This document shows positions 6,883 through 63,135 of a stretch of 64,000 nt of DNA, piece after piece. Position 1 is the stretch's first letter. Every line of letters begins with the position of its first letter. This DNA comes from Sphyrna mokarran. Its lineage: Eukaryota. Below the pieces are notes generated by a model. That model had not been told where the DNA came from. It did no database searches and saw only the letters and a list, made by a program, of their open reading frames with translations. The position numbers and the translations under genes are program-made. The DNA lies in contig JAGIQG010000008.1 in NCBI GenBank assembly GCA_024679065.1, positions 30,442,001-30,506,000 on the forward strand. The letters run 5' to 3'.

Positions 6883-7152
6883 CAGTGATTAGCACTGCTG
6901 CCTTACAGAGCCAGGGGCCCAGGTTCAATTCCAGCCTTGGGTGGCTTTCTTGTGGAGTTTGCACATTCTCCCCATGTTTGTATGGGTTTCCTCCAAGTGC
7001 TCTGGTTTCTTCCCACACTCCAACATGTGCAGGTTAGATTGATTGGCCTTGCTAAATTGCCCCTTAGTATCAGGAGATTACCAGGGTAAATCCTGGTGGG
7101 TTTCCAGGATTAGGGCTTGGATGGAACTAGTGTCAGTGCAGATTTGATGGGC
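6883..7152 (+). mobile_element. HE1/V-SINE-type tRNA-derived SINE
   Basis: tRNA-like head (gtgattagcactgctgcc, ggttcaattcc) plus V-core GGAGTTTGCACATTCTCCC...GGTTTC. Confidence 0.8.
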
Positions 7153-7195: not shown

Positions 7196-7346
7196 GTGGT
7201 AAGAAGTCTGACAACACCAGGTTGTGGATTGTGTGCTGTTGGAGAGCAGAACACCTCATTCACCGAAGGCCATAGGTCGAAAGCTTGTGAGTTTACTATC
7301 AAATAAATCAGTTGGATTTAAACCTGGTGTTGTCAGACTTCTTACC
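7196..7346 (+). mobile_element. Miniature Penelope-like element with inverted termini and decayed hammerhead
   Basis: 27-bp inverted termini tggtaagaagtctgacaacaccaggtt; 11-bp TSD atgattcaaaa (7185-7195, 7347-7357); internal ATTCAC..GAAGGC-catag-GTCGAAAGCTTGTGAGT. Confidence 0.8.
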
Positions 7347-21410: not shown

Positions 21411-22325
21411 TATCCTGGGGTCAGCATTGATCAGGATCTTAACTGGACAAACTACGTAAGTGCTGTGGCTGCAAGAGCAGGATACATACTGTTCAAGAAA
21501 TGGCTTAGTTCTTGACTCCCCAAAGCCTGTCCGCCATCCACTACACACAAGTCAAGAGTGGATGGGGAATACTCTCCAAATGCCAGTGTAATTCCAAAAT
21601 TATTCAAGAAACCTGACACCATCCAGGATCAAGCATCCCAACTGACTGTCGCTGAATCGCTCCTCGGCCTTTTGGCTAAGATTGATGTGCTACACTTGTT
21701 AGAAATCATGAGGTGACATTAAGCTTTCATTTGAAGCAATTTTTTAAAGCGGCATCTCAGCCTTTTAGCTAAGGTGAAAATGAGATCGAGCTTTGGAGGA
21801 GGTACAATGCCTGCTCCAATCAACTTGGATAATGTGGACCAAACGCGAGACAGGAAGTTGGATGCCTGATTTGTCAGCTTGCATCTGAAATGTCTATCTT
21901 GCTAAGGCTCTGAATTAGACTTTGATTGGATTGAATTGGATACAAACAAAAAAAATTGACTGTCATTGAATCCAATACCTTAAACATTCACTCCCTCCAT
22001 CACCAACATACGGTGCAGCAATGTTAATCATCTCCACGAGGCACTGCAGCAACTCACCAAGGCGTTTTCAATAACACCTCCCAAACCCACATCCACTGCA
22101 ACACAGAAGATCAAGGGCAGCAGGGGGAGGGTAACATCACCCAAAGGTCCACTACAATTCACACACCATTCTCACTTGGAAATAGATCATCACTGGTTAA
22201 TACCCTAATAGTATTTTGGGAGCGCTTTCACAAGACTTTGGCAGTTCAAGATGGTGCCTTATCACCACTCTCTCAAGAACAGACAATGACTGTTGGTCAT
22301 GTCAGTGAATGAACCAATAAAAAGG
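21411..22325 (+). mobile_element. Second decayed CR1/L2-group LINE fragment; host of the U2-headed element
   Basis: atcctggggtcagcattgatcag, caccatccagga, cattcactccctccatcacc paralleling 20480-21400. Confidence 0.65.
21656..21955 (+). mobile_element. U2 snRNA-headed retroposon (SINEU-like), 300 bp
   Basis: ATCGCTCCTCGGCCTTTTGGCTAAGAT matches U2 nt 1-27 at 26/27; second U2-like motif 21752-21773; A-rich tail; imperfect 14-bp TSD ctgactgtcgctga / ttgactgtcattga. Confidence 0.8.
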
Positions 22326-25991: not shown

Positions 25992-26454
25992 TCAAGGGGG
26001 CCTTCGTGACACATGACAGCGCAGAGTTGCTGAGCAGAGACTGATAGCCAAGTTCTGCACACATGAGGACGGTCTTAATAGGGATCTTGGCTTCATGACA
26101 CACTATCTGTAACCACCGTAACTTGCCTGGGTTAGCAAAAAACCTCACTTACTGTGCTGTCTGGAGAAAATACACAATTCTCTAACAATGCTCAGGATCC
26201 CCTTCACACACATTGTTAGCCACTTTACCACTTGAATAGCAGGTTAGATGTAAGGATTCGCATTCTAATCAGCAATCTCTGACTGTCTGTGCTGATGTGT
26301 GCTATTGCAGACCAGAACACTGCATTTGCCTGACGAAGGCTATAGAGTCGAAAGCTTGCGAATTTACTATCAAATAAATCGGTTGGATTTAAAATTGGTG
26401 TTGTAAAACTTTACTGAGTTTACCTCAGTCCAACACCGGCATCTCTACATCATG
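25992..26454 (+). mobile_element. Penelope-like element 3' fragment (GIY-YIG C-terminus, pLTR and tail)
   Basis: Translates QGGLRDT*QRRVAEQRLIAKFCTHEDGLNRDLGFMTHYL* (stop 26110-26112); hammerhead; AATAAA; tail ...agtccaacaccggcatctctacatcatg. Confidence 0.8.
26324..26363 (+). ncRNA. Minimal type-I hammerhead ribozyme in a Penelope pLTR
   Basis: Stem I ATTTGC/GCGAAT; core CTGACGA; stem II GGC-tataga-GTC; GAAA; palindromic AGCT stem III; cleavage triplet CUU. Confidence 0.7.
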
Positions 26455-27132
26455 ACTGCCACTGAGAGGCATCTATCAGGTTTTGGACTCAATGGGGGAA
26501 CCGTCTGCTGTAAAACAATCCCTATTGCATTACCAATTTTCCCTCAGGTAGCCACTTAATTGATCTTAATTAGCCACACATCACTGCTGGGCAAGATCAC
26601 TCAGTTACACGTGGCGTTAATGACTCAACTCATAACCTTCAGAAACTCCCTGCCCTCCCTTCTCCAGAACTGCCTCTGGGTATCTGATAAGATTCCAACC
26701 CTTGTCTGCATGATACAGCAGAGCCTACTTAATCCTGTTGTGATAATTTTGTGCTTAGAAAGGACTGTAAGAATTGTAGAATAAGCATTATGTATCAGTC
26801 AGCTTCAAATTTAAAGGGACATTCCTTCCCATGTGTCATCTAAAATGATCAATCTCCATCAGACCCTGAATGAACATTCCTGTTATGGGATACTGCATTT
26901 TATGTAGAGTATAACATTCAGTGATATGGAAGCTGGCTCAAATCATTTCACTTAATCTGAACTGGTTTGAGCGTAGGGGCATACAGATCATCACTGACTA
27001 TATTTCCCAGCAGCAAAAGTTAATGGAAAGTGAACTGGCTTTCAAATTACAATTATAGTTAAGAATAAATGACTAGGACTAGGAGTTAGCACTGACACAT
27101 TTCAAACAGTGGGCAGTAAATATGGTGGTATT

Positions 27133-27475
27133 CATAGAAATCATAGAAACCCCAAAGTGCAGAAGGAGGTCATCTGGCCCATCGAATTTGCACTGACCAC
27201 AATTCTACCCAGCCCTACCCACATATCACTACAAATTTAGCCTCTCATTCCTCTAATCTACACATCCCTGGATACTAAGGATCAATTTTAACATGGCCAA
27301 TCAACTTAACCCACACATCTTTGGACTGTGGGAGGAAACCGGAGCACCCGGAGGAAACCCACGCAGAGAGGAGGAGAATGTGCAAACTCCACACGGATAG
27401 TGACCCAAGCCAGGAATCGAAGCCAAGTCCCTGGTGCTGTGAAGCAGCGATACGAACCACTGGGCTACCGCGTTG
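27133..27475 (-). mobile_element. HE1/V-SINE-type SINE (CR1 tail)
   Basis: Reverse head and V-core; (TTCTATGA)-type tail. Confidence 0.85.
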
Positions 27476-27499
27476 TCCATATTGTATTCATTTGTTTGA

Positions 27500-27785
27500 T
27501 AGCACAGTGGGCACAGCAGTTAGCACTGCTACCTCATAGCAACAAGTTCAATTCCTGGCTTGGGTTACTGTGTGTGTGGAGTTTGCACATTCTCCCTGTA
27601 TCTGCATGGGTTTCCTCCCACAGTCCAAAAGACATGCCTGTTAGGTGCAATTGCCCATGTAAATTCTCCCTCTGTGTACCCAAACAGTGCCGGAGTGTGG
27701 CAACTGGAGGTTTTTCACAGTAATTTCATTTCAATATTAATGTAAGCCTACTTGTGGCAATTATAAATAAACTTTAAACTTCAAA
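27500..27785 (+). mobile_element. V-SINE with type-2 tail
   Basis: Head and V-core then ccggagtgtggcaactggagg...aatgtaagcctacttgtggcaattataaataaactttaaacttc. Confidence 0.8.
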
Positions 27786-28184: not shown

Positions 28185-31085
28185 TTTTTTTTTAAGCGAC
28201 ACAGCACGGGAAACAGGCCCTTCGGCCCAACGAGCCCGCGCCGCCGTCATACTATATAGTAGCAAATCCATTATCCTATTTTAATATTCCTATATAATAA
28301 TATATGTATTATTCCTAATATGGAAAATTCTCACCATAGGGACAATTTGTTTCCCAATCAGCCTAAGAGCGAATTTTTGGGTTGTGGGAGGAAACCGGAG
28401 TGCCCGGAGAAAACCCACGCAACCACGGGGAGAACGCGCAAACTCCCGCAGACACCGGCCCAATTCCAAGTGTCTGCACAGCCACATCGATAGTCTCTGA
28501 GCTGTCATGGTGCCCTTCAGATGGTCCACATAAAGCACTCATTTACGACATGAGGTACCAGGCAACCCATGAATCAACATCCAAGAGCTGTACCCGCACC
28601 ACCTGCCGAATGCATGCTCAATGTTGGTCAAGTATGGACCGAATTACCTGTGGAAAAAAGCCGTAGTTAAACAGTCCTACTATATCCCTCTATCTGCATA
28701 CCGCTCATGTGGCTGTCCAAGAGACCCTTAAACAGCCCCAGCGTGCCTGCTCCCACCACCTTACTCGGCAGTGCATTCCACACCCCCACTACCCTTTGTG
28801 TGAAAAACTGCCCTCTAATATTCGTCCTATACATAGCCCCCCTCACCCTATGGCCATGACCTCTCGTCCTATCCATTTCTAAAGGTGGAAAAAGTTTACC
28901 TCCATTTACTCTATCTATACCCCTTATAATCTTATACACCTCTATGAGATCCCCTCTAAGCCGACGTCTTTCAAGGGAAAACAACCCCAGTCTATCTAAT
29001 CGTTCCTCATAAGACAGTCCTTCCATACCAGGCAGCATCCTGGTAAACCTCCTCTGCACTCTCTCCAAGGACTCCACATCCTTCCGATAGTACGGCGACC
29101 AGAACTGGGCGCAGTATTCCAAGTGAGGCCTAACCAAAGTTCTATACAACTGCAACATCAAACTCCTACTCTTGTATTCTATACCCTTTTCTATGAAAGC
29201 TAACATACTATACGCCTTCTTTATCACCTTCTCCACCTGTGAGGACACCTTCAGAGACTTGTGAACCTGCACCCCCAAGTCTCTCTGCGTCTCTATGCTC
29301 CGTATAGTTTTACCTTTTATCCTATAACTCTCTTCTACATTTTTCCGGCCAAAATGCATCACCTCGCATTTATCCGGATTAAATTCCATTTGCCATCTAT
29401 CTGCCCAGTCTACCAACCTGTCTATGTCCTGTTGTATTGCCTGACACTGCTCTTCTGTACCCGCCAATCCAAGCATCTTGGTGTCATCAGCAAATTTGCT
29501 GATCTCACCACCTACCCCTACTTCCAAGTCGTTTATGTAGACCACAAATAGAAGAGGACCTAGTACTGAGCCTTGTGGCACTCCACTAGTGACAGGCTTC
29601 CAGCCGGAAAAAGAGCCTTCCACTACTACCCTCTGTCTCCTCCTCCCGAGCCAGTTCTCGACCCATCTACATACCCGACCCTGTATCCCATGCGCCTTCA
29701 CCTTCTCTATCAGTCTACCATGAGGAACCTTGTCAAACGCCTTACTGAAATCCATGTAGACGACATCAACAGCCTGTCCTTCATCAACTGTTTTTGTCAC
29801 TTCTTCAAAAAATTCCACTAGATTTGTAAGACAAGACTTCCCCTTGACGAAGCCATGCTGCGTATCCCTGATCAGATCGCAGCGCTCCAGATGCTCATAC
29901 ATCCTGTCCCTAAGGATCCTCTCCATTAGCTTACCTATAACTGAAGTCAAGCTCACCGGCCTATAGTTCCCTGGGTGATCCCTCTGACCTTTTTTAAACA
30001 ACGGTACTACGTTTGCTATCCTCCAGTCCTCTGGGACCTCACCTGTGTCCAGGGAAGAGACAAAGATTTGCGTCAGAGGCCCAGCCAAGTCTTCCCTCAA
30101 CTCCCTTAGCAGCCTGGGGTAAATGCCATCAGGCCCCGGAGCTTTATATGTCTTTAAGCTGCCTAACAGCCCCAACACCTCTTTCCTCGTAATCCTTATT
30201 TCCCTCAACCGATCCTCAACTTTGTCAACATCAGGCACAGACATCTGTCCAGTCTCCTGCGTGAATACCGACGCAAAGTATTCATTCAGGATCTCCCCCA
30301 TTCCCTCAGGCTCTAAGCATAGATCCCCTCCTCTGTCCCTAAGAGGTCCATTCTTGCCTCTAACCATCCTTTTGCTCCTTACATAGGTGTAAAATGCCTT
30401 TGGATTTTCCTTAATCCTACCTGCCAGAGCCACCTCGTGGCCTCTTTTTGCCTTTCTAATACCCCTTTTAAGATCCCGTCTACACTCTCTATAAGCTTCC
30501 AGCGCTGTCTCAGTCCCTAGTTGCCTAGATCTAATGTAAGCCTCTCGCTTTTTCTTGATCAAGTTCTCAATCTCCCTGGTAAGCCACGGTTCTCTAATCC
30601 TACCTTTCCCATCCTTCCTCCTTGCCGGCACGTATCTTTCCTGCAGAGAGTTTAGTTTTCCCTTGAAAGACTCCCACATGTACCTCGTCGACCTGCCCTC
30701 AAAAAGCTTATCCCAGTCGGTATCTTTAAGATCTTGCCTAATCTGGCCGTATCTAGCCCTCCCCCAGTTAAATACCCTCCCTTTTGGGCCAGTCTCGTCC
30801 TTTTCCATTAATATCCTAAAGCAGACAGAGTTGTGATCACTATTTGACACCTGCTCTCCTACCTCGACGTCAACCACCTGGCCTGGCTCATTTCCCAGAA
30901 CCAAATCCAGTATAGCCCCATCTCTAGTCGGGCCATCCACATACTGCTCCAAGGACCCTTCCAAAACACACTGTACAAATTCCTCCCCGTCCACTCCTAC
31001 AGCCCTGGGCACACTCCAATCTACTCCAGGAAAATTGAAATCTCCCACTACTACCACCCTATTTTTCCTACACTTATCTAAAATG
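28185..31085 (-). mobile_element. Young 5'-truncated CR1 LINE with ~480-bp 3'UTR and poly-A tail
   Basis: Uninterrupted ORF2; CR1 3' end gggctcgttgggccgaagggcctgtttcccgtgctgt followed by an A tail. Confidence 0.95.
28667..31085 (-). CDS. CR1 LINE ORF2 (partial APE endonuclease plus reverse transcriptase), 5'-truncated
   Basis: VVVGDFNFP, ILDLVL, SDHN (APE); KAPGPDG, NYRPVSLTS, YMDFSKAFDKV, GVPQGSVLGPLLF, FADDTK (RT); ~805 codons with no stop or frameshift. Confidence 0.92.
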
Positions 31086-31602
31086 TGTAGTTCCCCAAGG
31101 CAGGTGCCTCTCTCTGCTGCATTGCCCTTAAAGAGACAATTACCACACTTAGCATTGGCACAGCAAGGGCACTGAGGAGGAATATGCTTTACTTGGCTCA
31201 AATGTTGAGCTCTGCGCCAAATTAAAATGAAATTCTTATTCATCCTTTGATAAATACAAATCAAAGATGAACAAAGTTTAAAAGGAGATGTGATCAATGA
31301 TCAAAATGTCTTTGAATAGCTAGCACTCAAGTGTGTTTACCTTCTTTGTCCTGTAGATGTAACATATTGATAAACTCAGGTTCCACCTTATTCCATATTC
31401 AAAGATTTATGAAAATTCTTCCAGTATGTTTCAACTGAACTCTCATTAATTCTATGAGACCTCATTAGATTATCTTATTTTATTGACATCCGTTTGTCTG
31501 GGGAGATGGTGGACAGTGCCCAGGATTCTGTGTTGAATATCATCTGTAGTTGCTGTACAGGCTGATTCATGAGTGCTCACCCTTTACACACTGAAGCCCT
31601 TC

Positions 31603-36206: not shown

Positions 36207-36399
36207 ACATAGCTTGTTTCTTACTTTACATTGCAAATCAACAACAAAAACATTTAATGTACCAACGTTATGTTGCTGATCTCTATGTTGCATATTTCAA
36301 GGTTGCTTGATATTTGAATTCCTGAGATATGATAAAGTGGGGAGGGAGTGGGGAGTGGTTAAACCAAATATAATAAAACAATTATAAAAGGAGGCTTAC

Positions 36400-36579
36400 T
36401 CTAAAGAATCAATGAGCTTCTTTGGCTCTACAGGTGGAGGGTAGATGACCTCTTCTACATGGTTCCGGTTGCAGTTTGCATAAGCGGTGGAGATGTGTAT
36501 GAAGGCTTCAAGTTTCTGCATCTTTCGGGCCAGCAATAGGAGCTGCTGTGTGGCAACCACATTGAGCTGCAGGGCATGT
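36400..36579 (-). CDS. Fatty acyl-CoA reductase (FAR family, FAR2-like), exon equivalent to vertebrate exon 4
   Basis: cttgcacag| ... |gtaagc; 180 bp; (K)[59 protein letters not shown](E); phase matches the upstream exon (AA|A = Lys). FAR1 versus FAR2 orthology not resolvable by eye. Confidence 0.95.
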
Positions 36580-37024
36580 CTGTGCAAGGCAAGAGCAAAG
36601 AAAAACAGGATCACGGAATGGGAAAACCAATCCCTGCCTGACGCAAACAAGTGTATTGGCAACCAGTCTAAACTCAACATTTCATCTTCTTGCAATTACG
36701 TGGGGCCTTGCTAGCACACAAAAAGCATCTCCTCTTCTTAAAAGAATGCCTTTGTAAACATGGGTGAATGCACTTGTCAGCAGTCACAGCCCGAAAGATA
36801 CAATAGCACTCTGAAACTATCAATCCATCCGCAAGGTGGCAAAGCAGTAAACATAGGAAAAATTTGCAAGTATGGACAGGCTCGTTGGCACCAACAGATA
36901 GCTCCATACAGTAAAAAGTAAACTCAATTCCCCTACTCCACTGAGGGTGGGATTTCAACTGCACTGTTATGAGGTGCCACTAATCAAGGTTTTCACCATG
37001 CCTCTCCTGTGAGAAGAAAAGCTA

Positions 37025-37151
37025 GCAAGTGGTCTGACAACACCAATTTTAAATCCAACTGATTTATTTGATAGTAAACTTGCAGGCTTTCAGCTTTTGT
37101 AGCCTTCTTCAGGCGAATGAGGTGTTCTGGTCTGCAATGGCACATATATCC
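37025..37151 (-). mobile_element. Short Penelope-like pLTR insertion with hammerhead (37078-37118)
   Basis: 11-bp TSD aagaaaagcta (37014-37024, 37152-37162); minus strand ATTCGC CTGAAGA A GGCT-acaaa-AGCT GAAA GCCT GCAAGT then AATAAA. Confidence 0.8.
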
Positions 37152-38707: not shown

Positions 38708-39294
38708 TTTGCTACACTGTAGACTCCTTCTTGAATTTGATACAATTGAAAGTGGATGTTAGACCCAACTGCTGTCTAGGAAACATCTTATCTCAGACTA
38801 AATATTTTTGCCATTCTCAATTATACTGCAGATATTTTGACAACACTGTTAAATACATGGGTTACCTGCAGAGTGGACATTAGAAAGTTTAACCTGATAA
38901 ATATTTGTATTTGGAGGGGCCAGTTAGCTCAGTTGGCTAGACAGCTGTGTATATTTTGGAATAACGCACTGTGGGGTTTAATCCCCATTTTGGCACTGTT
39001 AGGCTTAGGACCTGCCTCTTTACTCTGCCTGGTCGTGAAACCATGGTTTATAGCAACCCTTGAATAATCAAGGATGCTACCTAGAGAGGAGGAAGATTTG
39101 TATTTATCCTCCACCAATATTTGGGAAAAAGATTGCTGTGTGAACACAATAAATTATAACTCTTTACTGCTATGGCCAAAAATGAGCAACAACTTCTGAA
39201 AGTAATGATGCAAAGTTACTGATACGGGAAATCAGAACTTAATTTTTTTTTTTGCTTTTCAAGTTTGGGTGCAAAGGTGACACAAGGGACATAC

Positions 39295-39461
39295 TTTAAA
39301 GGCTCGTCGAATCGTATGGTGGCTGCACAGTGGAAGACGACATTAATGCAGGAGAGCAGACGTTCAGTGTCCTCTGAGTTTATGGCCAGATTAGGCTGCA
39401 TCAGCTCACTGCCGATAGGAATGATCTTTTTCTGGAAGTCTTCTCTCACTCTGTCAAACAG
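39295..39461 (-). CDS. Fatty acyl-CoA reductase (FAR family, FAR2-like), exon equivalent to vertebrate exon 3
   Basis: ttccattgcag| ... |gtatgt; 167 bp; LFDRVREDFQKKIIPIGSELMQPNLAINSEDTERLLSCINVVFHCAATIRFDEPL(K), containing the FHCAATxRF motif of the FAR NAD-binding domain. Confidence 0.95.
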
Positions 39462-39577
39462 CTGCAATGGAAAAACAAAGATCAAAGCACTTGTTACACT
39501 TTCAAAATTTTCTCGGCAGTTTTGCTTCACTTTAGCAATAATGGTGAACTGTTAAACTTATCAGCCAATGATAAGAC

Positions 39578-40727: not shown

Positions 40728-43094
40728 GAGAAATCAGCATAAAGAAAACACTCCTCGACTGCCTCACTCTCAGAGCACCAATTTGATTTGATGGAGGGCT
40801 CTGATATCGAACTAATAGTGTTCCCCATCCTTATCCATCCAAAACCAAATACAACTTCAGGATTTAGTGCAAGTGAAAAATAATGCTGAAATCCTAAAGC
40901 TGCAGTCTGTTATTCACCATATGCCCACCATCTCCCCACCCTCACCATGCCCCAGAGTCAGCAATCAATTAATCATTTGAGAAGTTCCCCTTTTCCACTC
41001 TTGCATCGCTGCTGGACTCCAAGAAAAAAAATTAGGCTTTGTTCAACTAGCTGAATGTAAGATTTGAACAGAGGTCAGAGAGATAACTATTGTGAAAAAG
41101 ATTATGCTGAACATGGTGTGGTTAAACAAGAATGTTGTTAAGTGTCAATGTTAAGTTTAATTGCTTCAGTTTTTCCATGATAGCTTTCACCCGCCTGTAC
41201 ATCTTTATTTTTCGGTATGTAGAGTTTTATAAAGGCTATTTGATTTTAACATTTTTTTTTTATTTTCCAGCTATCTGTGAGAATTCTTTAATGTGTCTGG
41301 TTGCTTGAATAGCTTAGTGGCACTCCTGCAGCTCCATACTCCATATCCTCATTAAAGAATCCACTGCACATTGAGAGGAAGTTAAGCTATTGCCACAGGG
41401 AGCACGAGATGTCTCAGCAAGGCTTTCTTAGAGGTCAGCAGCGAGCAACCTTGTTTCACCAATGACTGCAATCCAAAAGGAAAAAAAAACAGTAAAAATG
41501 AGAAATAAGAATACCAGTCTGAAGTGTTTTTTCCTTTAGGAAAAATGCATGCCAAAATCTTTAAATATTGATGCTTCAAGTTTACTCTAAAGAGTTTGTT
41601 CGGGTCACTTACACATTATGGTCAGACATGCTAGTTTTTACTTTGTCCCATTCTATTATTTTGATTTGATTTATTATTGTCACATGTATTGGGATACAGT
41701 GAATATATGCACTATACAATCATTGGGATACAGTGAAATGCGTGCTATATAGTCACTGGGATATGTGCTATGCAATCAAAACATACTGTTCACAGAATAC
41801 ATATGGGAGAAGGAAAGGTTAACATGCGGGATATATTGTTGCAGTTACGGGTTGAGTGCAGGAAAGATGCAAAAACAGCAATTTTTAGTTTAGGCCACAG
41901 TGAACACGTAACAGTTGATTTTTAAAACAGTTAAGCCAACAGTGCAAGCCGCCAATCTTTTAATGAGCCAAAGAAACCAGCTAAAATGGAATCTCTACTG
42001 ATTCTAACTGTTCTGAAGAGCACTCTTGGAATCCAGGCTTTCAAAGGGACAATCAGGTCTAATATCAAAAGTAGCTGTGGTATGGTAGGCACGCTGAACC
42101 TTATTGTAAAATGTGCAGAAGTCTAGAACTTAAACTGATCAGAACACAATGTTCTGCCAACATCTGTAACTAATAATTTCACATCATTCTTCAAACTGAA
42201 TTTTTGACTCATCGCACAAATAGGTGTCAAGAAATCCACTCAAACTTGCTGGATGTATTCAACTCTAGTCAAAAGTGCACAAGGTCATCTTTAAGTGAAT
42301 GGGCAAACCACTGTGAATGTCACATTCAAACTATTGAACCCACAAAGTGAGGTTAGCCATCTGTGACAAATTGGAAGTCAAAAAAAACAAAGTAGCTCCA
42401 ATGCAATTGCAATATTGGCGCAGAGTCTGAGGGAAGTTGAATTAAAAATTATTATAATATTTTTTCTTCCATTAGTGGATTTGGATTGGCTGTCACTTAT
42501 CTACTCACTATCTCTGAAAATTCCAGACTGTATAAAATACGTTGAGATCCAAAGAAACATTCTTTGCCTCCTTGTCTGGAATTCAGTGCCCAGTAAATGG
42601 GGGTTTTCTAGGTGAATTGAATTTGTGAGGCCACACAAGGCAACTGATGTCAGAGGGTTGACTTTGGGTCAGCAGAGGTCACCAGTCAATTGCCCCTAAC
42701 CGCAGTGAAGAAGCAGGTGCGATTTTGAAGCCTTGACCTCATTGGTTTCAAGCTGGCAAGGTACAAGGCACCACGTACCATGTGAGCACTTAAATGCCGC
42801 ACAGTTAATACCAGGTCAAAATCAGGCTGTCCCAGATAGAAGAATGGTAAATGCAGAAGTGTGGCTGTTACAATCAGAGTGGGGTGAACCAAAAGCAACA
42901 GCAGCTTAAATTATTTATGTATACACACTTGACTCAAGGAGCATCGGGGTTCTTTCAAGCACAGTGAATGGTACAGGTCAGCTATCATCAATTATGTTCA
43001 GCTTAATGACCACCACATCGAATTGTCCAATCCAAGATGTATCTCATCCATCATATATTGCATCAAGGAGGCCATGGTGACCTACCAACACCAA

Positions 43095-43780: not shown

Positions 43781-45323
43781 AACATCTAGTAACCCTTACT
43801 AAAAAAAGGCATTACCACCCATTCTGTACAGTCAATCAATCAGCAACAGAGATGCTAACATAAATGAACATATTATAAACACAGCAGCCTGACCAATCAG
43901 CAGTAAGATCTTGCCTACATTCCCATCCTTCACCATATAGAATTACCTATTTTTATTTGCTCCAATCATTCATATTTCATTTACTCGTCACTCCTCCAGA
44001 TGATGAGCAGAGTACATAGCATAAAATGTTAGAGCCCATCATTTGTTTGAAGGAATCTTTTTCAGAGCAGATTTTTCTGCTTTAACTAAAAATTGTCTCA
44101 CTTCAAACAACTTTTCAAAATACTAAATCTTGTGAAATATACTGATTTTATTCCAACGTGGCTTAATGTCATATTGTACTTGAAGGTCCCTTTACTCAAA
44201 TCTTTCAATAATAATAGTAAATATTTATCAAGCTATATTGTTTGTTCCTTCATTACAGAACTGAAAACTATGCTCATCCATTGATCCAATACTGAGTAAT
44301 TACAGCTAGTCTTAAATGTTAATTATTTAAATTGTTACGATTGCTTTAAAAGCAAGTCATGTGATTTGATAGGCACAGCCCAGCTATGCCCTGACCACCA
44401 AGGGGCTTCAATGTCCTTCAATCCCCCCCAACGAGGCTATCACATCTGGTCTCCACTGCTAGAAACCAGCTATGATTTTTGCCGATGTGAGGACTGACTG
44501 GTGAGGAAGCAAGTCTGAGTGAGCCTAAATGATGCCATCTGGGACTCACTAATGATGTGTAAAATATATTATTAATACTTAAATTGGTTTTGCTCCCAGA
44601 AAGGTGTGAAGCTGACCTCGCCGGCAAAACAGGTCCTGTAAGGTTATGTGAGCTAAGAAACTGTGCCCGAACTCGTCAAATTGTGCCCGCAATGCTTATA
44701 AAAGATTGCCTTTTGGAATAACATTCATCCCAGCCCTGTTCTCACAATTGAGGAATCAGATTTTAAGTGACCCCTCTGGTGTACAATGTTATCGGAATAA
44801 AATTCTAATCACAGGGTTCACCGAATGGGAACGCATGAAAAATTTAAAAGCAACATCGAAATGTCTCGAAGCACATGGTCTGCTTATTAAGAAAGAAAAG
44901 TGTGACTTTTTCCAGAAATCAATCCAGTATTTGGGTCATATTATTGATAGTAAAGACCTAAATAAAGCACCTAAAAAGATGGAACATTATTTTAAAAGCA
45001 CTGTATCTAATGAATATGATGCAATTGAGGTCCTTTCTAGGATTAGTAAATTATTGTGGCAAATTTGTTCCTAATTAGCAACATCAATAAAGCCATTGCA
45101 TAGTTTACTGTGTGTGAAACAGTCATGAGACTAGACAACAGAATGTGAAAAGCATACAAGGATGTCAAAAATGTTTTGCAGAAGTCTGAAATATTGGTTC
45201 ATTTTAATTCGAAACTACCAATTCTGCCCACTTGCAACACTTGGAGTAGGAGCAATAGCTTCATATACAATGCCTTCGGGAGAAAAATGACCAATAGCTT
45301 TTTCTCTGCATACTCTGACTAGT

Positions 45324-45516
45324 CATGATGTAAAGATGCCGGCGTTGGATTGGGGTGGTAAGAACTCAGTAAGAATTTAGCAACACCAATTATTAATCCA
45401 ACCGATTTATTTGATAGTAAATCCGCGAGCTTTCAACACAAGAGTGTTGAAAGCTCGCGGATTTACTATCAAATAAATCGGTTGGATTAATAATTGGTGT
45501 TGCTAAATTCTTACTG
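45324..45516. mobile_element. Palindromic Penelope-like insertion
   Basis: 13-bp TSD tactctgactagt (45311-45323, 45517-45529); perfect 73-bp arms 45367-45439 and 45444-45516; pLTR tail catgatgtaaagatgccggcgttgga on the left. Confidence 0.85.
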
Positions 45517-46392: not shown

Positions 46393-46902
46393 AATATGAT
46401 GTAGAGATGCTGCCTTGGACTGGGGTAAACACTGTAAGAAGTCTCACAACACCAAGTTAAAGTCCAACCAGTTTATTTGATAGTAATCCCACAAGCTTTT
46501 GAAAACACTGTTCTTTTGTCAGCAGAGACCGACAGCCAAGTTCCGCATACGAGGATGACATCAACTGGGATCTTGGGTTCATGTCACACTATCTGTAACC
46601 CCCATGACTTGCCTGGGCTTGCAACATCTCATTTACTGTCCTGTCTGGAGACAAACACATCTCTTTAACCTGTGCTAATGCTATTTCCACTCATATTGTC
46701 TGCATCTTTAAGACTTGAATAGCAAATTAGCTGTAAAGATTTGCATTCTAATCAGTGTTCTGTAAACTGTGTGTGACTTTATATGCTCTTCTCTGATCAG
46801 AACCTTCCACACGCCTGAGGAAGGAACAGCGTTTCTGAAAGTTTGTGGGATTATATCAAATAAACTGGTTGGACTTTAACCTGGTGTTGTGAGACTTCTT
46901 AC
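46393..46902. mobile_element. Penelope-like insertion with inverted pLTRs, GIY-YIG C-terminal remnant and hammerhead (46809-46850)
   Basis: 11-bp TSD tgaaggaatta (46382-46392, 46903-46913); ...WDLGFMSHYL*; CTGAGGA A GGAAC-agc-GTTTCT GAAA. Confidence 0.85.
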
Positions 46903-51739: not shown

Positions 51740-52476
51740 GTGATGTCGATGTTGGACCGGAGATGCCGGCGTTGGACTGGAGTAAACACCGTAAAAAGTC
51801 TCACAACACCAGCTTAAAGTCCAACTAATTTATTTGGTAGTAAATTCACCAGCTTTTGGGGTTTGCCCCTTTGTCAAATGAATGGAGAGTTCTGGCTCGG
51901 ACAGAACATGTACAGCACATACAGTTTACAGATTACTGATTAGAACGCGAGTCTTTCCAACTAACCTGCTATTCAAGTCTTAAAGATGCCGACAATGTGA
52001 GTGGAAAGAGCATTGGGCATAGGTTAAAAAGATGTGTATTGTCTCCAGACAGTACAGTAAGTGAGATTTTGCAAACTCAGGCAAGTCATGGGGTTACGGA
52101 TAGTGTGACAAGAACCCAATATCCTGGTTGAGACATCCTCATGGGTTCTTGTCACACTATCTGTAACCTCCATGGCTTGCCTGGGTTTGCAAAACCTCAC
52201 TTATTGTACTGTCTGGACACAATACACATCTCTTAATACTATGCAAAATGCTCTTTTCATTCACATTGTCTGCATCTTTAAGACTTGAATAGCAGGTTAG
52301 TTGTAAAGACTTGTATTCTATTCAATAATCTGTAAACTGTGTGTACTGTTACATGCTCTGTCTGAGGCCAGAGCTCTCCATCCACCTGACAAAGGGACAA
52401 ACCCCGAAAGCTTGTAAATTTACTATCAAATAAATTGGTTGGCCTTTAAGCTGGTATTGTGAGACTTCTTACTGTG
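51740..52476. mobile_element. Penelope-like element forming a ~330-bp inverted repeat
   Basis: Arms ~51787-52118 and 52142-52476; each arm carries a hammerhead remnant and the GF.SHY C-terminus; tail agatgccggcgttggactgg on the left. Confidence 0.85.
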
Positions 52477-53190: not shown

Positions 53191-56104
53191 CTACAAAAAA
53201 AGGTTAGTTCATTATTTAAAATAATTAAATCAACATGTCCTGAACACATTTTAAATCCTCAGGGCTTTTTTGCTTGACATGAGTTAGGAAAGAGAATATA
53301 TGTGAGAGTGAGCTAATTCTGTCTGTAGAACACACTGGGACCTGGGGTCAAGTAGGTGTGTGCTGTAAGAGATTTCAACTGATGGGCTAATAGGATGTAT
53401 CTGGGTTAAGATTTACAGAATCCTGCAAAACTATACAACGCCCACACAAATAATTCCAACCCTATTAATGCAACTCTGCTTTCTGCAACTGCAGCAGAAC
53501 TTTACCATAAGGAATTGGTTCCAAAGCTCAAATCTGTAAAATTACAGGTTCGAGAGAGGAGTCTAATGGCAGCTGGTGCTGTGCCAATTCCATTTGGTTG
53601 TGCCACTCCATTCTAAAGCAAATTCTAAAAGAGCAATCACTTTGTTTTTGGAGAATGTGTTGTGTTTACCATGTGTGCTGCAGTCAATGCACAGACAAAA
53701 ATATTACTAAAATATTCAGCTATAGGTAGCAGTGTTGTGTGAACAAACTGTAGCTGATACTTCCACTACCAAGCTAATCTACCTGTCAAGGAGCAATTTA
53801 ATCACGCCCCTTTTCCCAAGCTGCTAGCTGCACATATTATAAATTACTGAAGTGCTGTAATCCAATTTTAACCTTGCCGCGTAGTATTTATGATTAGGTA
53901 AATTGAACTCAGCAGAAAATGGTACGGACAGGATTCTTATGCATTTCTGATTCAAATTGATTTTGGCTTTTAACAAGTTGGCAGAATTAGATCCTCTCCC
54001 ATTCATAAAATACAGTGGTGGAATTTTAATTTCGGGTGAGAAAACAGGTGCAAACTGGCGTAAATCAGATTGCAACAGTCCCACACTTAGTCATCTTTTG
54101 GGAGGTAAGGTGCACACTGGCACTGAGACGGGTGGGACCTAAATACACTGGTCTGCCCGGATATTCAGGGCACCCCAATCTCAAATTTAAATTGTGGACC
54201 TCCCTCCCCCCGGACATCAACGACACTTCCCATCTGCCTGCACACCAATCATTGAAGGGATCTTTCTCCACTCCCAGCACCAATGGAGATCACCGCACTG
54301 TGGCCTTCCTAATTGGTTCCCCTTCATGACCTTCTGCATTAAAACCCGCCTTTCAGGCTCCACCCTCCTCATGTCTCAGCCCCTTAGCACTTTCAGCTGC
54401 ACCTAGTGCACTCAGCTGTACCCAGAATACAGATGTTTCCAGTGCGCTCAGCTAGGTTTGAATATCACGTAGAGTTAATGTTATTGGCTGTAATTTGGTT
54501 TCCGTGATGGCTGGGACTCAGCTGGAGGCCGAGGTGGATAATTCACCTGGTACTTCTAGCTAAATCAGTTTGCAAAACCATCAACCTTGCCTTTTGCACT
54601 CACATGCTGGGATGCAGGTTAAAGGTGTAGGTATTGATGGAGTGTACCCTTCCCCACCAATTGTTTAACTGTCCACCATCTTTCATAACTAGATGTGTCA
54701 GGGCTACAGAGACTTGTTCCAATCCATACTACATGGCGTGACTTTGTCCAATGTATGCATCCACTATTTGTAGCATCATCAGGCTGACACTTCAATTTTA
54801 GATGTCCCTCATGTACTGCCTCTGACCTACTTTCTACATTCTTCATTGAACCAAGGTTCAGCGGCTGGTGATAACGGTAGAATAAGGGATATATCAGGAC
54901 ATGAGGTGATAGACTGTGAAACAATTCTGGGGACTGTTAATGACCCACAATGCCTCATGGATATCAGTTTTTTTTCTCTGCTAGGATCTGTTCTGAATCT
55001 ATTTTATTTGTTTTGGGGTAACAATCTTCTTTCTTTTAACCATTTTGAGTCAAATGAATTCCCAAAACATCCCTAATTCTGTTAGTCTATGTGCTTTCCC
55101 AGAGTTAAGGGAAGGTTCAATTGCAACAAATAAGTTGCTCTTGTTTGAAGTATTGTCAGGGAAACGGGGCACAGCTCAATCACACAAGTTTCCTTAAGGG
55201 TACAGTCTCAAGGTTGCGGAGATTGGCAAAAGGGGAAGTCCGTTGTGCTCCTTTACAGATTCTTTTGTCCTGCTGCTTTCCAAAAAGCAGTTATATTGTT
55301 CTTCAAGCAATGACTCATTCGCTGGCATCATTTTTGTTGTCGTCTGCATTTTTAACCAAGTCAGTGCTCAGATCTTTTTGAAATACAGTGTTACTTTTCA
55401 TAAAGCTACAAATGAATGTCGAATGTTCAACATCATGAAGCAACTTGTCAAATAAAAGTGGGAATACTGAATATTTCTTCTTTTTCTTCCCCTAAATGTT
55501 TGCTTTTGCAATCCTTAAGTTTATTTCATCCCTCAGCTCTCAGTTCATAATAACATTTAGTCTGCATCTCCTTGAAAAGCATTCCTTTTGCCAGACTAAT
55601 ATATTAAATATGAAGCAAGCATGCAGTATATTTTCATCTGAACTGTTGTGGGCATTATGGGAGATTGGTGGGAAATGGACCTCATAACAGGAACTGAACT
55701 CATCTTCCTGATCTTCCTGCCATGAGATTAATGGAAACACAATTTGGCATATTTTATAACAAGCCTGTAACCCACACCACTGAGCTTTCCTCTTTGCAAA
55801 CAGTCGCTAATTAATTAGTGCCCAAATTATAAAGTCGCATACCTTACCTCTTTACAACAATGAAATATTTTTGCAAACGAATGCTGGAAAGGCATAACAA
55901 AGGCCTAATTTGGCTAGAGCTAAATACCACATCAGTCCAAGTTTATATGCCACAGCTTTGGCTTCATGTCAAAGCTATTACAGTCTTAAATCCTAAGGGA
56001 TACCCACAGTGCAAACTTTATTTGCCACAGATTTGCTGTGCGAAGCTTAGAAATCCCAATTTAAGAAATAATTACAATAATAAAAATTGATACAGGTAAG
56101 TGAT

Positions 56105-56645: not shown

Positions 56646-58359
56646 GCAATGAGGCAGTTAATATCATGAACTGTTAACAGTTCAGCCTTAGGAGGTCACC
56701 TTAATCCCTCAATGAATCATTGCCTAGTAGACATTCTCATTATTATTATAAGATGAAAACATGCGAATTAGGAGAAGACAATCACTCAGCCCTTCGAGCC
56801 TGCTCCACCTTCAAAAAGATCATGGTTGATTTGGTTGTAATCTCAGCTCTATATCCCTGCCTACCCCGATAACCTTTCATCCATTCATATTATATACTGG
56901 ACGCAATTCTCTGGCCATTCACGCCAGAGAATACAATGTCAGTGGGATTCTCCAGTCCCGCTGGAGTGAACGGAGATTTGGCTGAGCACCGAATTCTCTG
57001 TCCTTACTTGTAGCTGTGGTGGGGTTTGAATAGCTGGAAAATTCTGGGCATTAAATGGTCTATATTCGTGGAGTCAATTTGTTCCATTCTCTATTTTTCC
57101 AGTGTGGAGAATCAAGTCAGGCAGTGGCAGCCAGAACACTTAGGAGCAGATTTTCCTCTTTTGCATTTAGACATAACACAATTTTCAAGTTGGAACATAA
57201 ACCAGTAAGCCAGGCAGGAAGGATTGCATGCCTGTGATGTGCATGAAACACTCTTTCACAATTCCCCTCCATGAGCTATCCTTGCTGACTTATGCCCAAA
57301 TGAAAGAGAAGAAACTTGTCAATTAGGGCATTAGCTTTAAGTAGCTTGCAAGCATATAGAAAAACAACATGCAACATGGACTACTTAGAACTAATCCACT
57401 ATTAAAATAAAGGTAATCTGATCAGGACTATGTATTCTAAACTTCAAAACTGGGATCAAATGGTAAATTTAACAGTTTTCTCACCCCTTTATTACAGTAC
57501 CAGTTCTTCAAGTTGTGCTTCTTTCAATTTCAATTTATTTACTAGGTATTAATGAAATTACCATTACATCCTCCAGACTATCTGCACTTTTTATAACAAG
57601 GAATATAAAAGCAGGGAGGTTATGACGGAGCTGTATAAAATGGTCATTATGCAGCAGCAAGAGTACTGTGTGTAGTGGCCTAATGAATATCCTGTGCAGG
57701 GTCAACACCAGGGCATCTTGGTTCCCCCCCACCTCAGTCTTCTCTTCTCTAAGGGATACAACATCAGCCTAAGCTATTCCTCTTCACAGCTGAAACACTC
57801 CAGCCCTGGCGACATCCTGGTGAATAACTTGCCTGAGAATCAGTCACTATATATCAGTCATTATATATCAAAAGTAATTAACTTTTGAGATGCTTTGATG
57901 TACCAACCTAGTGTATCAACACATTTATTAAAATTACGACCATCTCACCAAACAAATATCCATAATACGATTGAAAATCAAACATGCAGCATGGATTTGA
58001 GTATCTTAGAATGTTCATATAGTAAAAGGCAAATTTTCAGCCCAATGTACCTGTTAATTGCTCAATGTATATACTCTGCACCCAAGTTCTGGCCCATCTT
58101 CTGTTTTCTAAGTTTTTGTCTGATTACATTTTAAACATGAACAAGCTTCAATAATTGTTGTGGTAATGAATTACATATTCTAATAATGCTTTATATTTGT
58201 AAAAAAAAAGACCTTCTTAATATGGCAGCATTAATTCTAAATTTATGTCACTTTGCCCCTTTAGCAATGATTCACTCACTGTGAAAATAATCTTTCACTA
58301 TTTACCCTTCTTTACTCTTTAATAATCTTCAACACTTCAAGGACAGCATGGTGGTACAG

Positions 58360-63017: not shown

Positions 63018-63135
63018 CAGTAAGAAATCTGACAACACCAGGTTTAATAGCAAATAAATTGTTTGGACATAAAGCTGGTGTTGTCAGGCTTCTTACTGTG
63101 TTTACCCCTGTCCAACGCTGGCATCTCCACATCAC
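63018..63135 (+). mobile_element. Miniature Penelope-like element (inverted pLTR ends plus tail)
   Basis: TSD agcaagaggga(a/t)ata (63003-63017, 63136-63150); cagtaagaaatctgacaacacca / tggtgttgtcaggcttcttactg; tail tccaacgctggcatctccacatca. Confidence 0.8.

Follow-up and report, generated by a model that had tools for sequence, protein, structure and literature searches.

A minimal type-I hammerhead motif of Penelope-like origin at the FAR1 locus of Sphyrna mokarran

The FAR1 locus and its repeats

The window analysed is a stretch of 64,000 nucleotides from Sphyrna mokarran (assembly GCA_024679065.1, contig JAGIQG010000008.1, positions 30,442,001 to 30,506,000 of the forward strand). Two exons of host FAR1 lie on its minus strand, one encoding approximately aa 63-121 (39288-39464, 93% identical to basking shark FAR1) and the other approximately aa 119-179 (36399-36581, 92-95% identical to shark FAR1 proteins). 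The best FAR1 protein matches come from sharks, with basking shark at 95%. Beyond these two exons, comparison of four shark FAR1 proteins with the window gave no match above threshold; the rest of the window is therefore probably FAR1 intron, if the gene continues on both sides.

Repeats of several kinds occupy this sequence. An open frame of 877 aa with endonuclease and reverse transcriptase (RT) Pfam matches (28667-31300, minus strand, hence FAR-sense) belongs to a LINE, which we take by resemblance to be of the CR1/L2 type. An RT fragment with an RVT_1 match (44652-45074, +) is presumably LTR-retrotransposon-like, again by resemblance. The 5′ end of a U2 snRNA (21656-21683, +), under the Rfam gathering score, is likely a truncated pseudogene. 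An abundant short interspersed repeat of ∼200-340 bp, found at 6883-7150, at 27130-27780 and in >15 other places, with some inverted pairs, is probably a shark SINE.

The focal insertion and its hammerhead

The insertion on which this analysis centres (25993-26454, +; insertion B below) is a 5′-truncated Penelope-like element (PLE) in which an ORF end is followed by the 3′ UTR/pseudo-LTR (pLTR) and a tail. Its truncation point lies near 25993 and its 3′ end was placed by homology to the tailed arm of another insertion (D). What survives of the coding region, as located by tblastn, is the 3′ end of a GIY-YIG endonuclease ORF (25993-26112, +), 39 codons that contain one in-frame stop and run up to the TAA at 26110-26112. 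These 39 aa are 79% identical (tblastn E 5e-15) to the C-terminus of P0004, a protein of 643 aa from the shark Heptranchias perlo with an RVT_1 domain, a CX4CX2C linker and a GIY-YIG-type C-terminus. Seven relatives, returned among 10 candidates, are 79-92% identical to the ORF end. The cluster of P0004 has 54 members, and all 15 members listed are from Heptranchias perlo. By tblastn the ORF end matches both P0004 and P0002, the latter bearing a Pfam GIY-YIG match; a 31-aa piece of the ORF end taken from the window alone had no Pfam match, and a PDB sequence search with P0004 returned 0 matches. The RT part of the element is not present in the window, its RT domain being known from the relative P0004. 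The ORF end is also recognizable, as weaker remnants, at 46545-46595 (+) and 52132-52100 (-). In Heptranchias perlo, predicted isoforms of XRCC5/Ku80 and of a divergent kinase-domain gene (P0007, P0105) include or cluster with PLE sequence, reflecting either exonisation or an annotation artefact.

Downstream of the ORF end lies a complete minimal type-I hammerhead (26324-26363, +), recognized from sequence, fold and a descriptor scan. Stem I joins 26324-26329 to 26358-26363 (ATTTGC/GCGAAT) through 6/6 pairs, one being G-U. Within it are the core CTGACGA (CUGACGA in RNA, 26330-26336), an extra A at 26337, the 4-bp stem II (GGCT-atag-AGTC, 26338-26341 with 26346-26349), GAAA at 26350-26353, the AGCU palindrome at 26353-26356 and U17 at 26357, 3′ of which cleavage is predicted from the sequence only. 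All elements of the minimal type-I motif announced by the earlier note are present. AATAAA at 26373-26378, a candidate polyadenylation signal (AAATAAA is invariant in 7/7 aligned copies), is followed by a GT-rich tract near 26396-26404 and by the PLE tail of ∼38 nt (26417-26454), delimited by homology between arms.

The minimum-energy fold of the focal copy contains stems I and II, and the energy of the 40-mer is unremarkable (z -0.61 versus shuffles); in single-sequence folding no hammerhead copy is more stable than its own shuffles (z -1.43 to +0.89). Chance occurrence was estimated with a descriptor combining an intact core, a 4-bp stem II and a variable stem I, run on both strands of the window and on dinucleotide-shuffled controls. 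With at least 5 of the 6 stem I pairs, 26330 is the sole match in the window, and 1/400 shuffles match; with all 6 pairs, none of 1000 shuffles does. Shortening stem I to 3 bp gives two window matches, 26330 and 46815, against one match in 5/1000 shuffles and two matches in 0/1000. The nine matches of an Rfam scan of the whole window (E ≤ 10) include no hammerhead model, and the motif is therefore assigned to no Rfam family. The 26324-26363 motif is almost certainly a minimal type-I hammerhead of the PLE kind.

Copies, decay and covariation

Six hammerhead copies had been listed in the window, and all were found at their places; they are homologous, with nhmmer E-values of 1e-39 to 1e-46 from a profile built from these six copies themselves. 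The list lacked a seventh copy, without the 5′ strand of stem I, that runs from 46522 (-), and five more arms that hold the downstream part only, the ribozyme being missing or partial. Two of its entries, at 51883 and ∼52381, are not separate copies; both are arms of one insertion (F). In hammerhead numbering, changes of G8, G12 or U16.1 and a G at position 17 disable the ribozyme. Only the focal copy is fully intact, one (46809) keeps its catalytic nucleotides and 5/7 are disabled. The core CUGANGA, GAAA, U16.1 and H17 are complete at 26330 and 46815 and incomplete in the other five: 4 nt of CUGANGA are deleted in 7258-7292 (+), U16.1 is changed to C in 37118-37078 (-), C3, G8 and G12 are changed and G17 is present in 51883-51844 (-), G8>A occurs in 52380-52419 (+), and the stem-I-less copy from 46522 (-) combines G8>A with G12>A. 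The copy at 46809-46850 (+) keeps the core, reads AGUU at the palindrome and forms 4/6 stem I pairs. Same-strand copies lie 5.6-20.5 kb (+) or 5.4-9.4 kb (-) apart, in separate insertions.

An extra A between positions 9 and 10.1 is common to 7/7 copies. The 10.1-11.1 pair is G-C in four of the seven (focal included), G-U in two and A-C in one. AGCU is kept in 5/7 copies, again including the focal one. Reduction of stem III to this palindrome, as had been proposed, holds for four of the six listed copies and is broken in two, because of U16.1>C in 37118 and AGUU in 46809. Pairing of stem II through changes of sequence is also seen, in a register slightly different from that first given in three copies. 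At 7258 the stem is GGCC-ata-GGTC with 4 bp, where 3 bp had been assigned both here and at 26324; GGAAC-agc-GTTTC strands a U before GAAA, the in-register form being GGAA-cagcgt-TTCT. CpG methylation drives mutational decay. Since three G8>A changes, two G12>A changes and the two G-U pairs at 10.1-11.1 fall at CpG sites, and the window is CpG-poor (observed/expected 0.26), methylation-driven decay explains them.

Several other candidates were discarded. Weak model matches at 40768-40810, 53981-54041 and 56823-56845 hold no ribozyme on inspection. A scan of GTDB genomes for the pLTR end, aimed at contaminant fish or shark contigs that might hold independent copies, returned 10 matches, with 8 weak loci (≤23 bits); they are taken as chance, because the best three alignments fit the search pattern only and contain no ribozyme.

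Three types of copy can be distinguished (A/B/C, E and F), with 78-88% identity within types and 65-75% between, the exception being 46522, which is 76-78% identical to the F arms. Their different stems II were recovered, so that the coexistence of several ribozyme subfamilies, as stated in the earlier note, is borne out. Pairing was assessed by shuffles that ignore relatedness among the seven copies. In a MAFFT alignment 84.6% of 65 stem cells pair, a value reached by 1/500 column shuffles and compared with 11-49% in slid controls; the figure is slightly conservative because stem II of the 7258 copy is misaligned by one base. Double changes affect 4/10 pairs in this alignment, a count reached by 322/500 shuffles. 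When the seven related copies are in register, 57/64 stem cells pair; with one copy per insertion, 47/50 or 44/50 cells pair according to the F arm chosen (shuffle fractions 0.0003 and 0.003). Watson-Crick double changes are again found in 4/10 pairs (shuffle fraction for this count 0.44), at stem I positions 2 and 5 and stem II positions 3 and 4. Unaided, RNAalifold recovers stem II and not stem I. Of the candidate covariation in these seven related copies, true double changes between subfamilies affect the four pairs; its amount had been overstated, since many single-sided changes fit post-insertion CpG decay. The compensatory changes are read as the product of selection in separate parent subfamilies before insertion, followed by neutral decay of the present copies; selection in the parents is favoured because the three subfamilies, although no more than 65-75% identical, have all retained the catalytic nucleotides and the two stems.

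A motif arisen by chance, whose ‘covariation’ is the mere mutational decay of one repeat, is exceedingly improbable. It would accord with the Rfam result, with the ordinary fold energy and with the seven core or closing-pair deviations compatible with CpG deamination, but the full motif is absent from 1000 shuffles and lies where PLE hammerheads are published. Moreover, stem II positions 3 and 4 alternate between C-G, G-C, A-U and U-A, which needs transversions on both sides.

Insertion architecture

Seven insertions, between 118 and 737 bp long, account for all the copies. Insertion A (7196-7346, +) consists of a short inverted arm and a pLTR end with the hammerhead 7258-7292, between target-site duplications (TSDs) of 11 bp, exact. 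Insertion C (37025-37151, -) is a FAR-sense pLTR end with the hammerhead 37118-37078 and an exact 11-bp TSD. The other four have no single strand. Insertion D (45324-45516, 13-bp exact TSD) has head-to-head inverted pLTR ends with a tail on the left arm; its arms are identical at 73/73 aligned bases and truncated within stem II, hence without the ribozyme core. Insertion E (46393-46902, 11-bp exact TSD) combines a long plus arm, with an ORF remnant and the hammerhead 46809-46850 and without tail, and a short minus arm with the dead stem-I-less hammerhead from 46522 and a tail. Insertion F (51740-52476, no clear TSD) has two inverted arms, 293/335 identical, with both hammerheads dead and a tail on the left arm. 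Insertion G (63018-63135, 15-bp TSD with one mismatch) has inverted pLTR ends that comprise only sequence downstream of the ribozyme, with a tail on the right arm. An Rfam match to mir-1781 (63020-63096, 35.8 bits for a gathering score of 68) is the hairpin of these inverted arms.

Collectively, TSDs of 11-15 bp flank 5/7 insertions; a length of 11 is reached by 7/600 random zone pairs of similar size, and the TSD search found none at insertions B and F. Inverted head-to-head arms also occur in 5/7. Tails are found on 5/12 arm ends and never on both ends of one insertion. Past one fixed anchor, seven arm ends lie at 13-17 nt and five at 51-64 nt. Published PLE architecture comprises 5′ truncation, an inverted 5′ copy and a 30-40 bp tail at one end (PMC8557442, PMC3846280), and the two groups of arm ends match the two tail-bounding start sites of PAc, a PLE of Anolis (PMC11167929). 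In inverted elements both outer ends are element 3′ ends and abut the TSD. Simple cDNA fold-back was considered for the inverted arms of insertion E and rejected, the tail being on the short arm and not on the long one. Two target-primed cDNAs joined at their far ends would be a better fit, because both outer ends are 3′ ends at the TSD and the tail of E is on its short arm only; the anole PLE protein extends both target strands (PMC11167929). In the centre of insertion D (45435-45448), directly before GAAA, a 5-bp hairpin with a 4-nt loop is seen by eye; it is apparently the ribozyme's own stem II, and the two arms may have been joined through homology that it provided.

Identity of the parent element and comparison with known systems

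Protein homology, TSDs, inverted arms and tails bear out the Penelope-like origin advanced earlier. The motif is best understood, with a probability of roughly 0.9, as a minimal type-I hammerhead in the pLTR of a Neptune-type shark PLE, carried by a 5′-truncated dead insertion. Membership of Neptune is suggested by the linker and by the distribution of PLEs in vertebrates. The truncated copy in the window does not reach as far as the linker; the CX4CX2C linker is seen in its 79%-identical relative P0004 and is of a type common to Neptune and Nematis; in PMC8557442 a CX2-5CxxC linker before GIY-YIG is given as a Neptune feature shared with Nematis. Vertebrates sampled in bioRxiv 10.64898/2026.07.22.740005 have Neptune and Poseidon PLEs only.

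It is improbable that the copies represent a non-autonomous retrozyme or SINE-like family in monomeric form, instead of truncated PLEs. Such an origin would suit the shortness of the insertions (118-737 bp) and the report that vertebrate retrozymes derive from pLTRs and are present in one chondrichthyan (bioRxiv 10.64898/2026.07.22.740005). However, the window contains no head-to-tail tandem units, the 5′ breakpoint differs in every insertion, three insertions retain endonuclease ORF-end remnants, and inverted arms, tails and TSDs are marks of PLE insertion. The same preprint describes vertebrate non-LTR retrozymes with type-I hammerheads, pLTR-derived as here, and finds them in the single chondrichthyan sampled; they form head-to-tail tandem arrays, whereas the shark copies are solo or head-to-head, and the window has no series of at least two head-to-tail units with complete hammerheads by which a non-LTR retrozyme is defined.

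The closest known counterparts of the shark copies are the minimal hammerheads (min-HHRs) of metazoan PLEs, described with a palindromic helix III and an extra nucleotide by Cervera and de la Pena in 2014 (PMC4209133), who report several covarying families per genome and, at distances of 100-700 bp, opposite-strand second copies. Like the focal copy, they are of type I, with CUGANGA plus one extra nucleotide, G10.1-C11.1, GAAA, a palindromic 15.1-16.1 segment, U-H, a short stem I and a location in the 3′ pLTR; like the window copies, they are mostly solo and truncated. The painted-turtle row and the consensus have the same layout, with G-C-U-U after GAAA and AAAUAAA downstream. Compared with the rows of that paper, the 6-bp stem I and 4-bp stem II of the focal copy are nearer to canonical sizes than many, and no cartilaginous fish is among the rows examined of its Fig. 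S3. With Neptune PLEs as described in PMC8557442 and PMC3846280, the shark copies share the C-terminal GIY-YIG domain, 5′ truncation, an inverted 5′ copy, a 30-40 bp tail and TSDs, and the relative P0004 has the CX2-5CxxC linker; TSDs are 8-10 bp in the rotifer PLE examples and 11-15 bp here, and no microsatellite targeting is seen at the seven window sites. PAc, a Poseidon PLE (Frangieh et al. 2024, PMC11167929), has a pLTR hammerhead too, two reverse-transcription start sites that bound its tail and priming from both target strands. It belongs to another clade, and its ORF begins at stem II, which is not evident in the shark copies.

The motif, the palindromic stem III and covariation within a genome are thus already published, and the same layout is known in turtle and fish PLEs. 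The whale shark genome is reported to contain Penelope elements (PMC8455134), as are vertebrate lineages at large (PMC4350176). A literature search, with most subscription journals outside its coverage, found no description of a PLE hammerhead specific to sharks. The present case adds a shark example to a motif of which the genomes of fish, coelacanth, frog and reptiles have yielded thousands of copies, and a single window shows how ribozyme subfamilies differ and decay.

Folding, cleavage and role

A loop of 2 nt is unable to close stem III within a monomer. With just two bases between A15.1 and U16.1, the monomer of the shark hammerhead therefore cannot close its stem III. Processing of the precursor RNA in the parent element would take two ribozymes, either repeated along one tandem transcript or located on separate RNAs that the element's protein brings together; they would pair AGCU with AGCU, exchange stem I strands and cut 3′ of U17. 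Published PLE work suggests that cleavage in the parent would be slow and probably protein-assisted. Predicted folding gives stems I and II a probability of ∼0.2 in a 101-nt context and of ∼0 in 200-340 nt, and the predicted active dimer reaches -12.3 kcal/mol versus -24.7 for the best misfolded dimer. These energies agree with the poor unaided folding of published PLE hammerheads: minimal forms showed no activity as monomers and weak activity as dimers (PMC4209133), and the anole PLE hammerhead cleaved only with the element's protein (PMC11167929).

Cleavage as a dimer or with the help of protein is, by analogy, the somewhat favoured role of the hammerhead in its parent. That the ribozyme is a dispensable passenger, or a folded structure for protein binding or regulation, with cleavage not needed for transposition, is less likely but a serious contender. 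In vitro, insertion by the anole PLE is normal when its ribozyme is mutated, and none of the reads terminated at the cut site (PMC11167929); Naiad PLEs thrive without canonical hammerheads, and parasitism of PLEs by hammerheads has been raised (PMC8557442); predicted folding is weak. Yet the retention of catalytic nucleotides and both stems across the three subfamilies points to selection in the parents, and a pure binding role would not require CUGANGA, GAAA and UH. As for the focal genomic copy, it is most likely inert in place, because it is antisense to FAR1, has no nearby partner and no known transcript; the closest copy on its strand that retains the core lies at a distance of 20.5 kb.

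On the FAR1 side, the minus-strand copies had been described as damaged and lying in the FAR pre-mRNA. The damage is real and 37118 lies between the mapped FAR1 exons, the others being presumably intronic. The three FAR-sense ribozymes (37118, 46522, 51883) are all dead, and the focal copy, the only intact one, is antisense. AATAAA is intact and FAR-sense in four minus-strand arms (37068, 45411, 46477, 51834), where it provides possible intronic polyadenylation sites. Host co-option of the FAR-sense copies, to cut or prematurely polyadenylate FAR1 pre-mRNA, might be read from these four AATAAA and from the position of insertion C between two exons. It is very improbable: core changes disable 3/3 FAR-sense ribozymes, the F copy is enclosed by a long fold-back (731 nt, -492 kcal/mol) in which its hammerhead stems have probabilities of 0.000, and AATAAA is the element's own conserved sequence. 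Head-to-head arms are predicted to form long double-stranded RNA in FAR1 pre-mRNA (-125 kcal/mol for D, -492 for F and -201 for E), and these structures may be editing substrates.

A candidate helix between pLTR end and tail

Alignment of the five tailed arms reveals a candidate 7-bp helix (+) between 26383-26389, just after AATAAA in the pLTR, and 26427-26433 in the tail. It was noticed after the alignment had been looked at. In these five copies 35/35 cells pair, and 2/7 pairs are doubly changed. Of the 1561 possible 7-bp helices none ranks higher, and no other is >90% paired with two double changes. RNAalifold predicts it. It encloses the short insertion endpoint near 26414-26416 and lies ∼20 nt before the long one. 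A neighbouring helix overlaps it by four bases and is preferred when the focal copy is folded as a single sequence, the pLTR-tail helix then having a probability of 0.00; the combined structure of both is reached by 46/500 shuffles.

A tentative proposal is that the pLTR-tail helix, together with its competing or pseudoknotted neighbour, may be a further conserved RNA structure of shark Neptune-type PLEs, located 3′ of the ribozyme, and that it would mark the two start sites of their telomerase-like RT. Structure at PLE start sites is not unprecedented, since the anole PLE has an AC-rich stem loop there (PMC11167929). In a literature search by title and abstract start, no paper describing such a pLTR-tail helix in PLEs was found. 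Together with the head-to-head insertions, the helix yields testable predictions on the choice of start site by the PLE RT and on priming from both target strands. Two further observations concern the tails. The tailed arm ends at 26452-26454 and 45324-45326 read ATG, at which, speculatively, the ORF of the following unit might begin in a tandem parent. The left-arm tail of insertion F (51740-51770, -) exceeds the others by ∼10 nt, apparently because a stretch of tail sequence is repeated; the RT may have jumped template as synthesis began.
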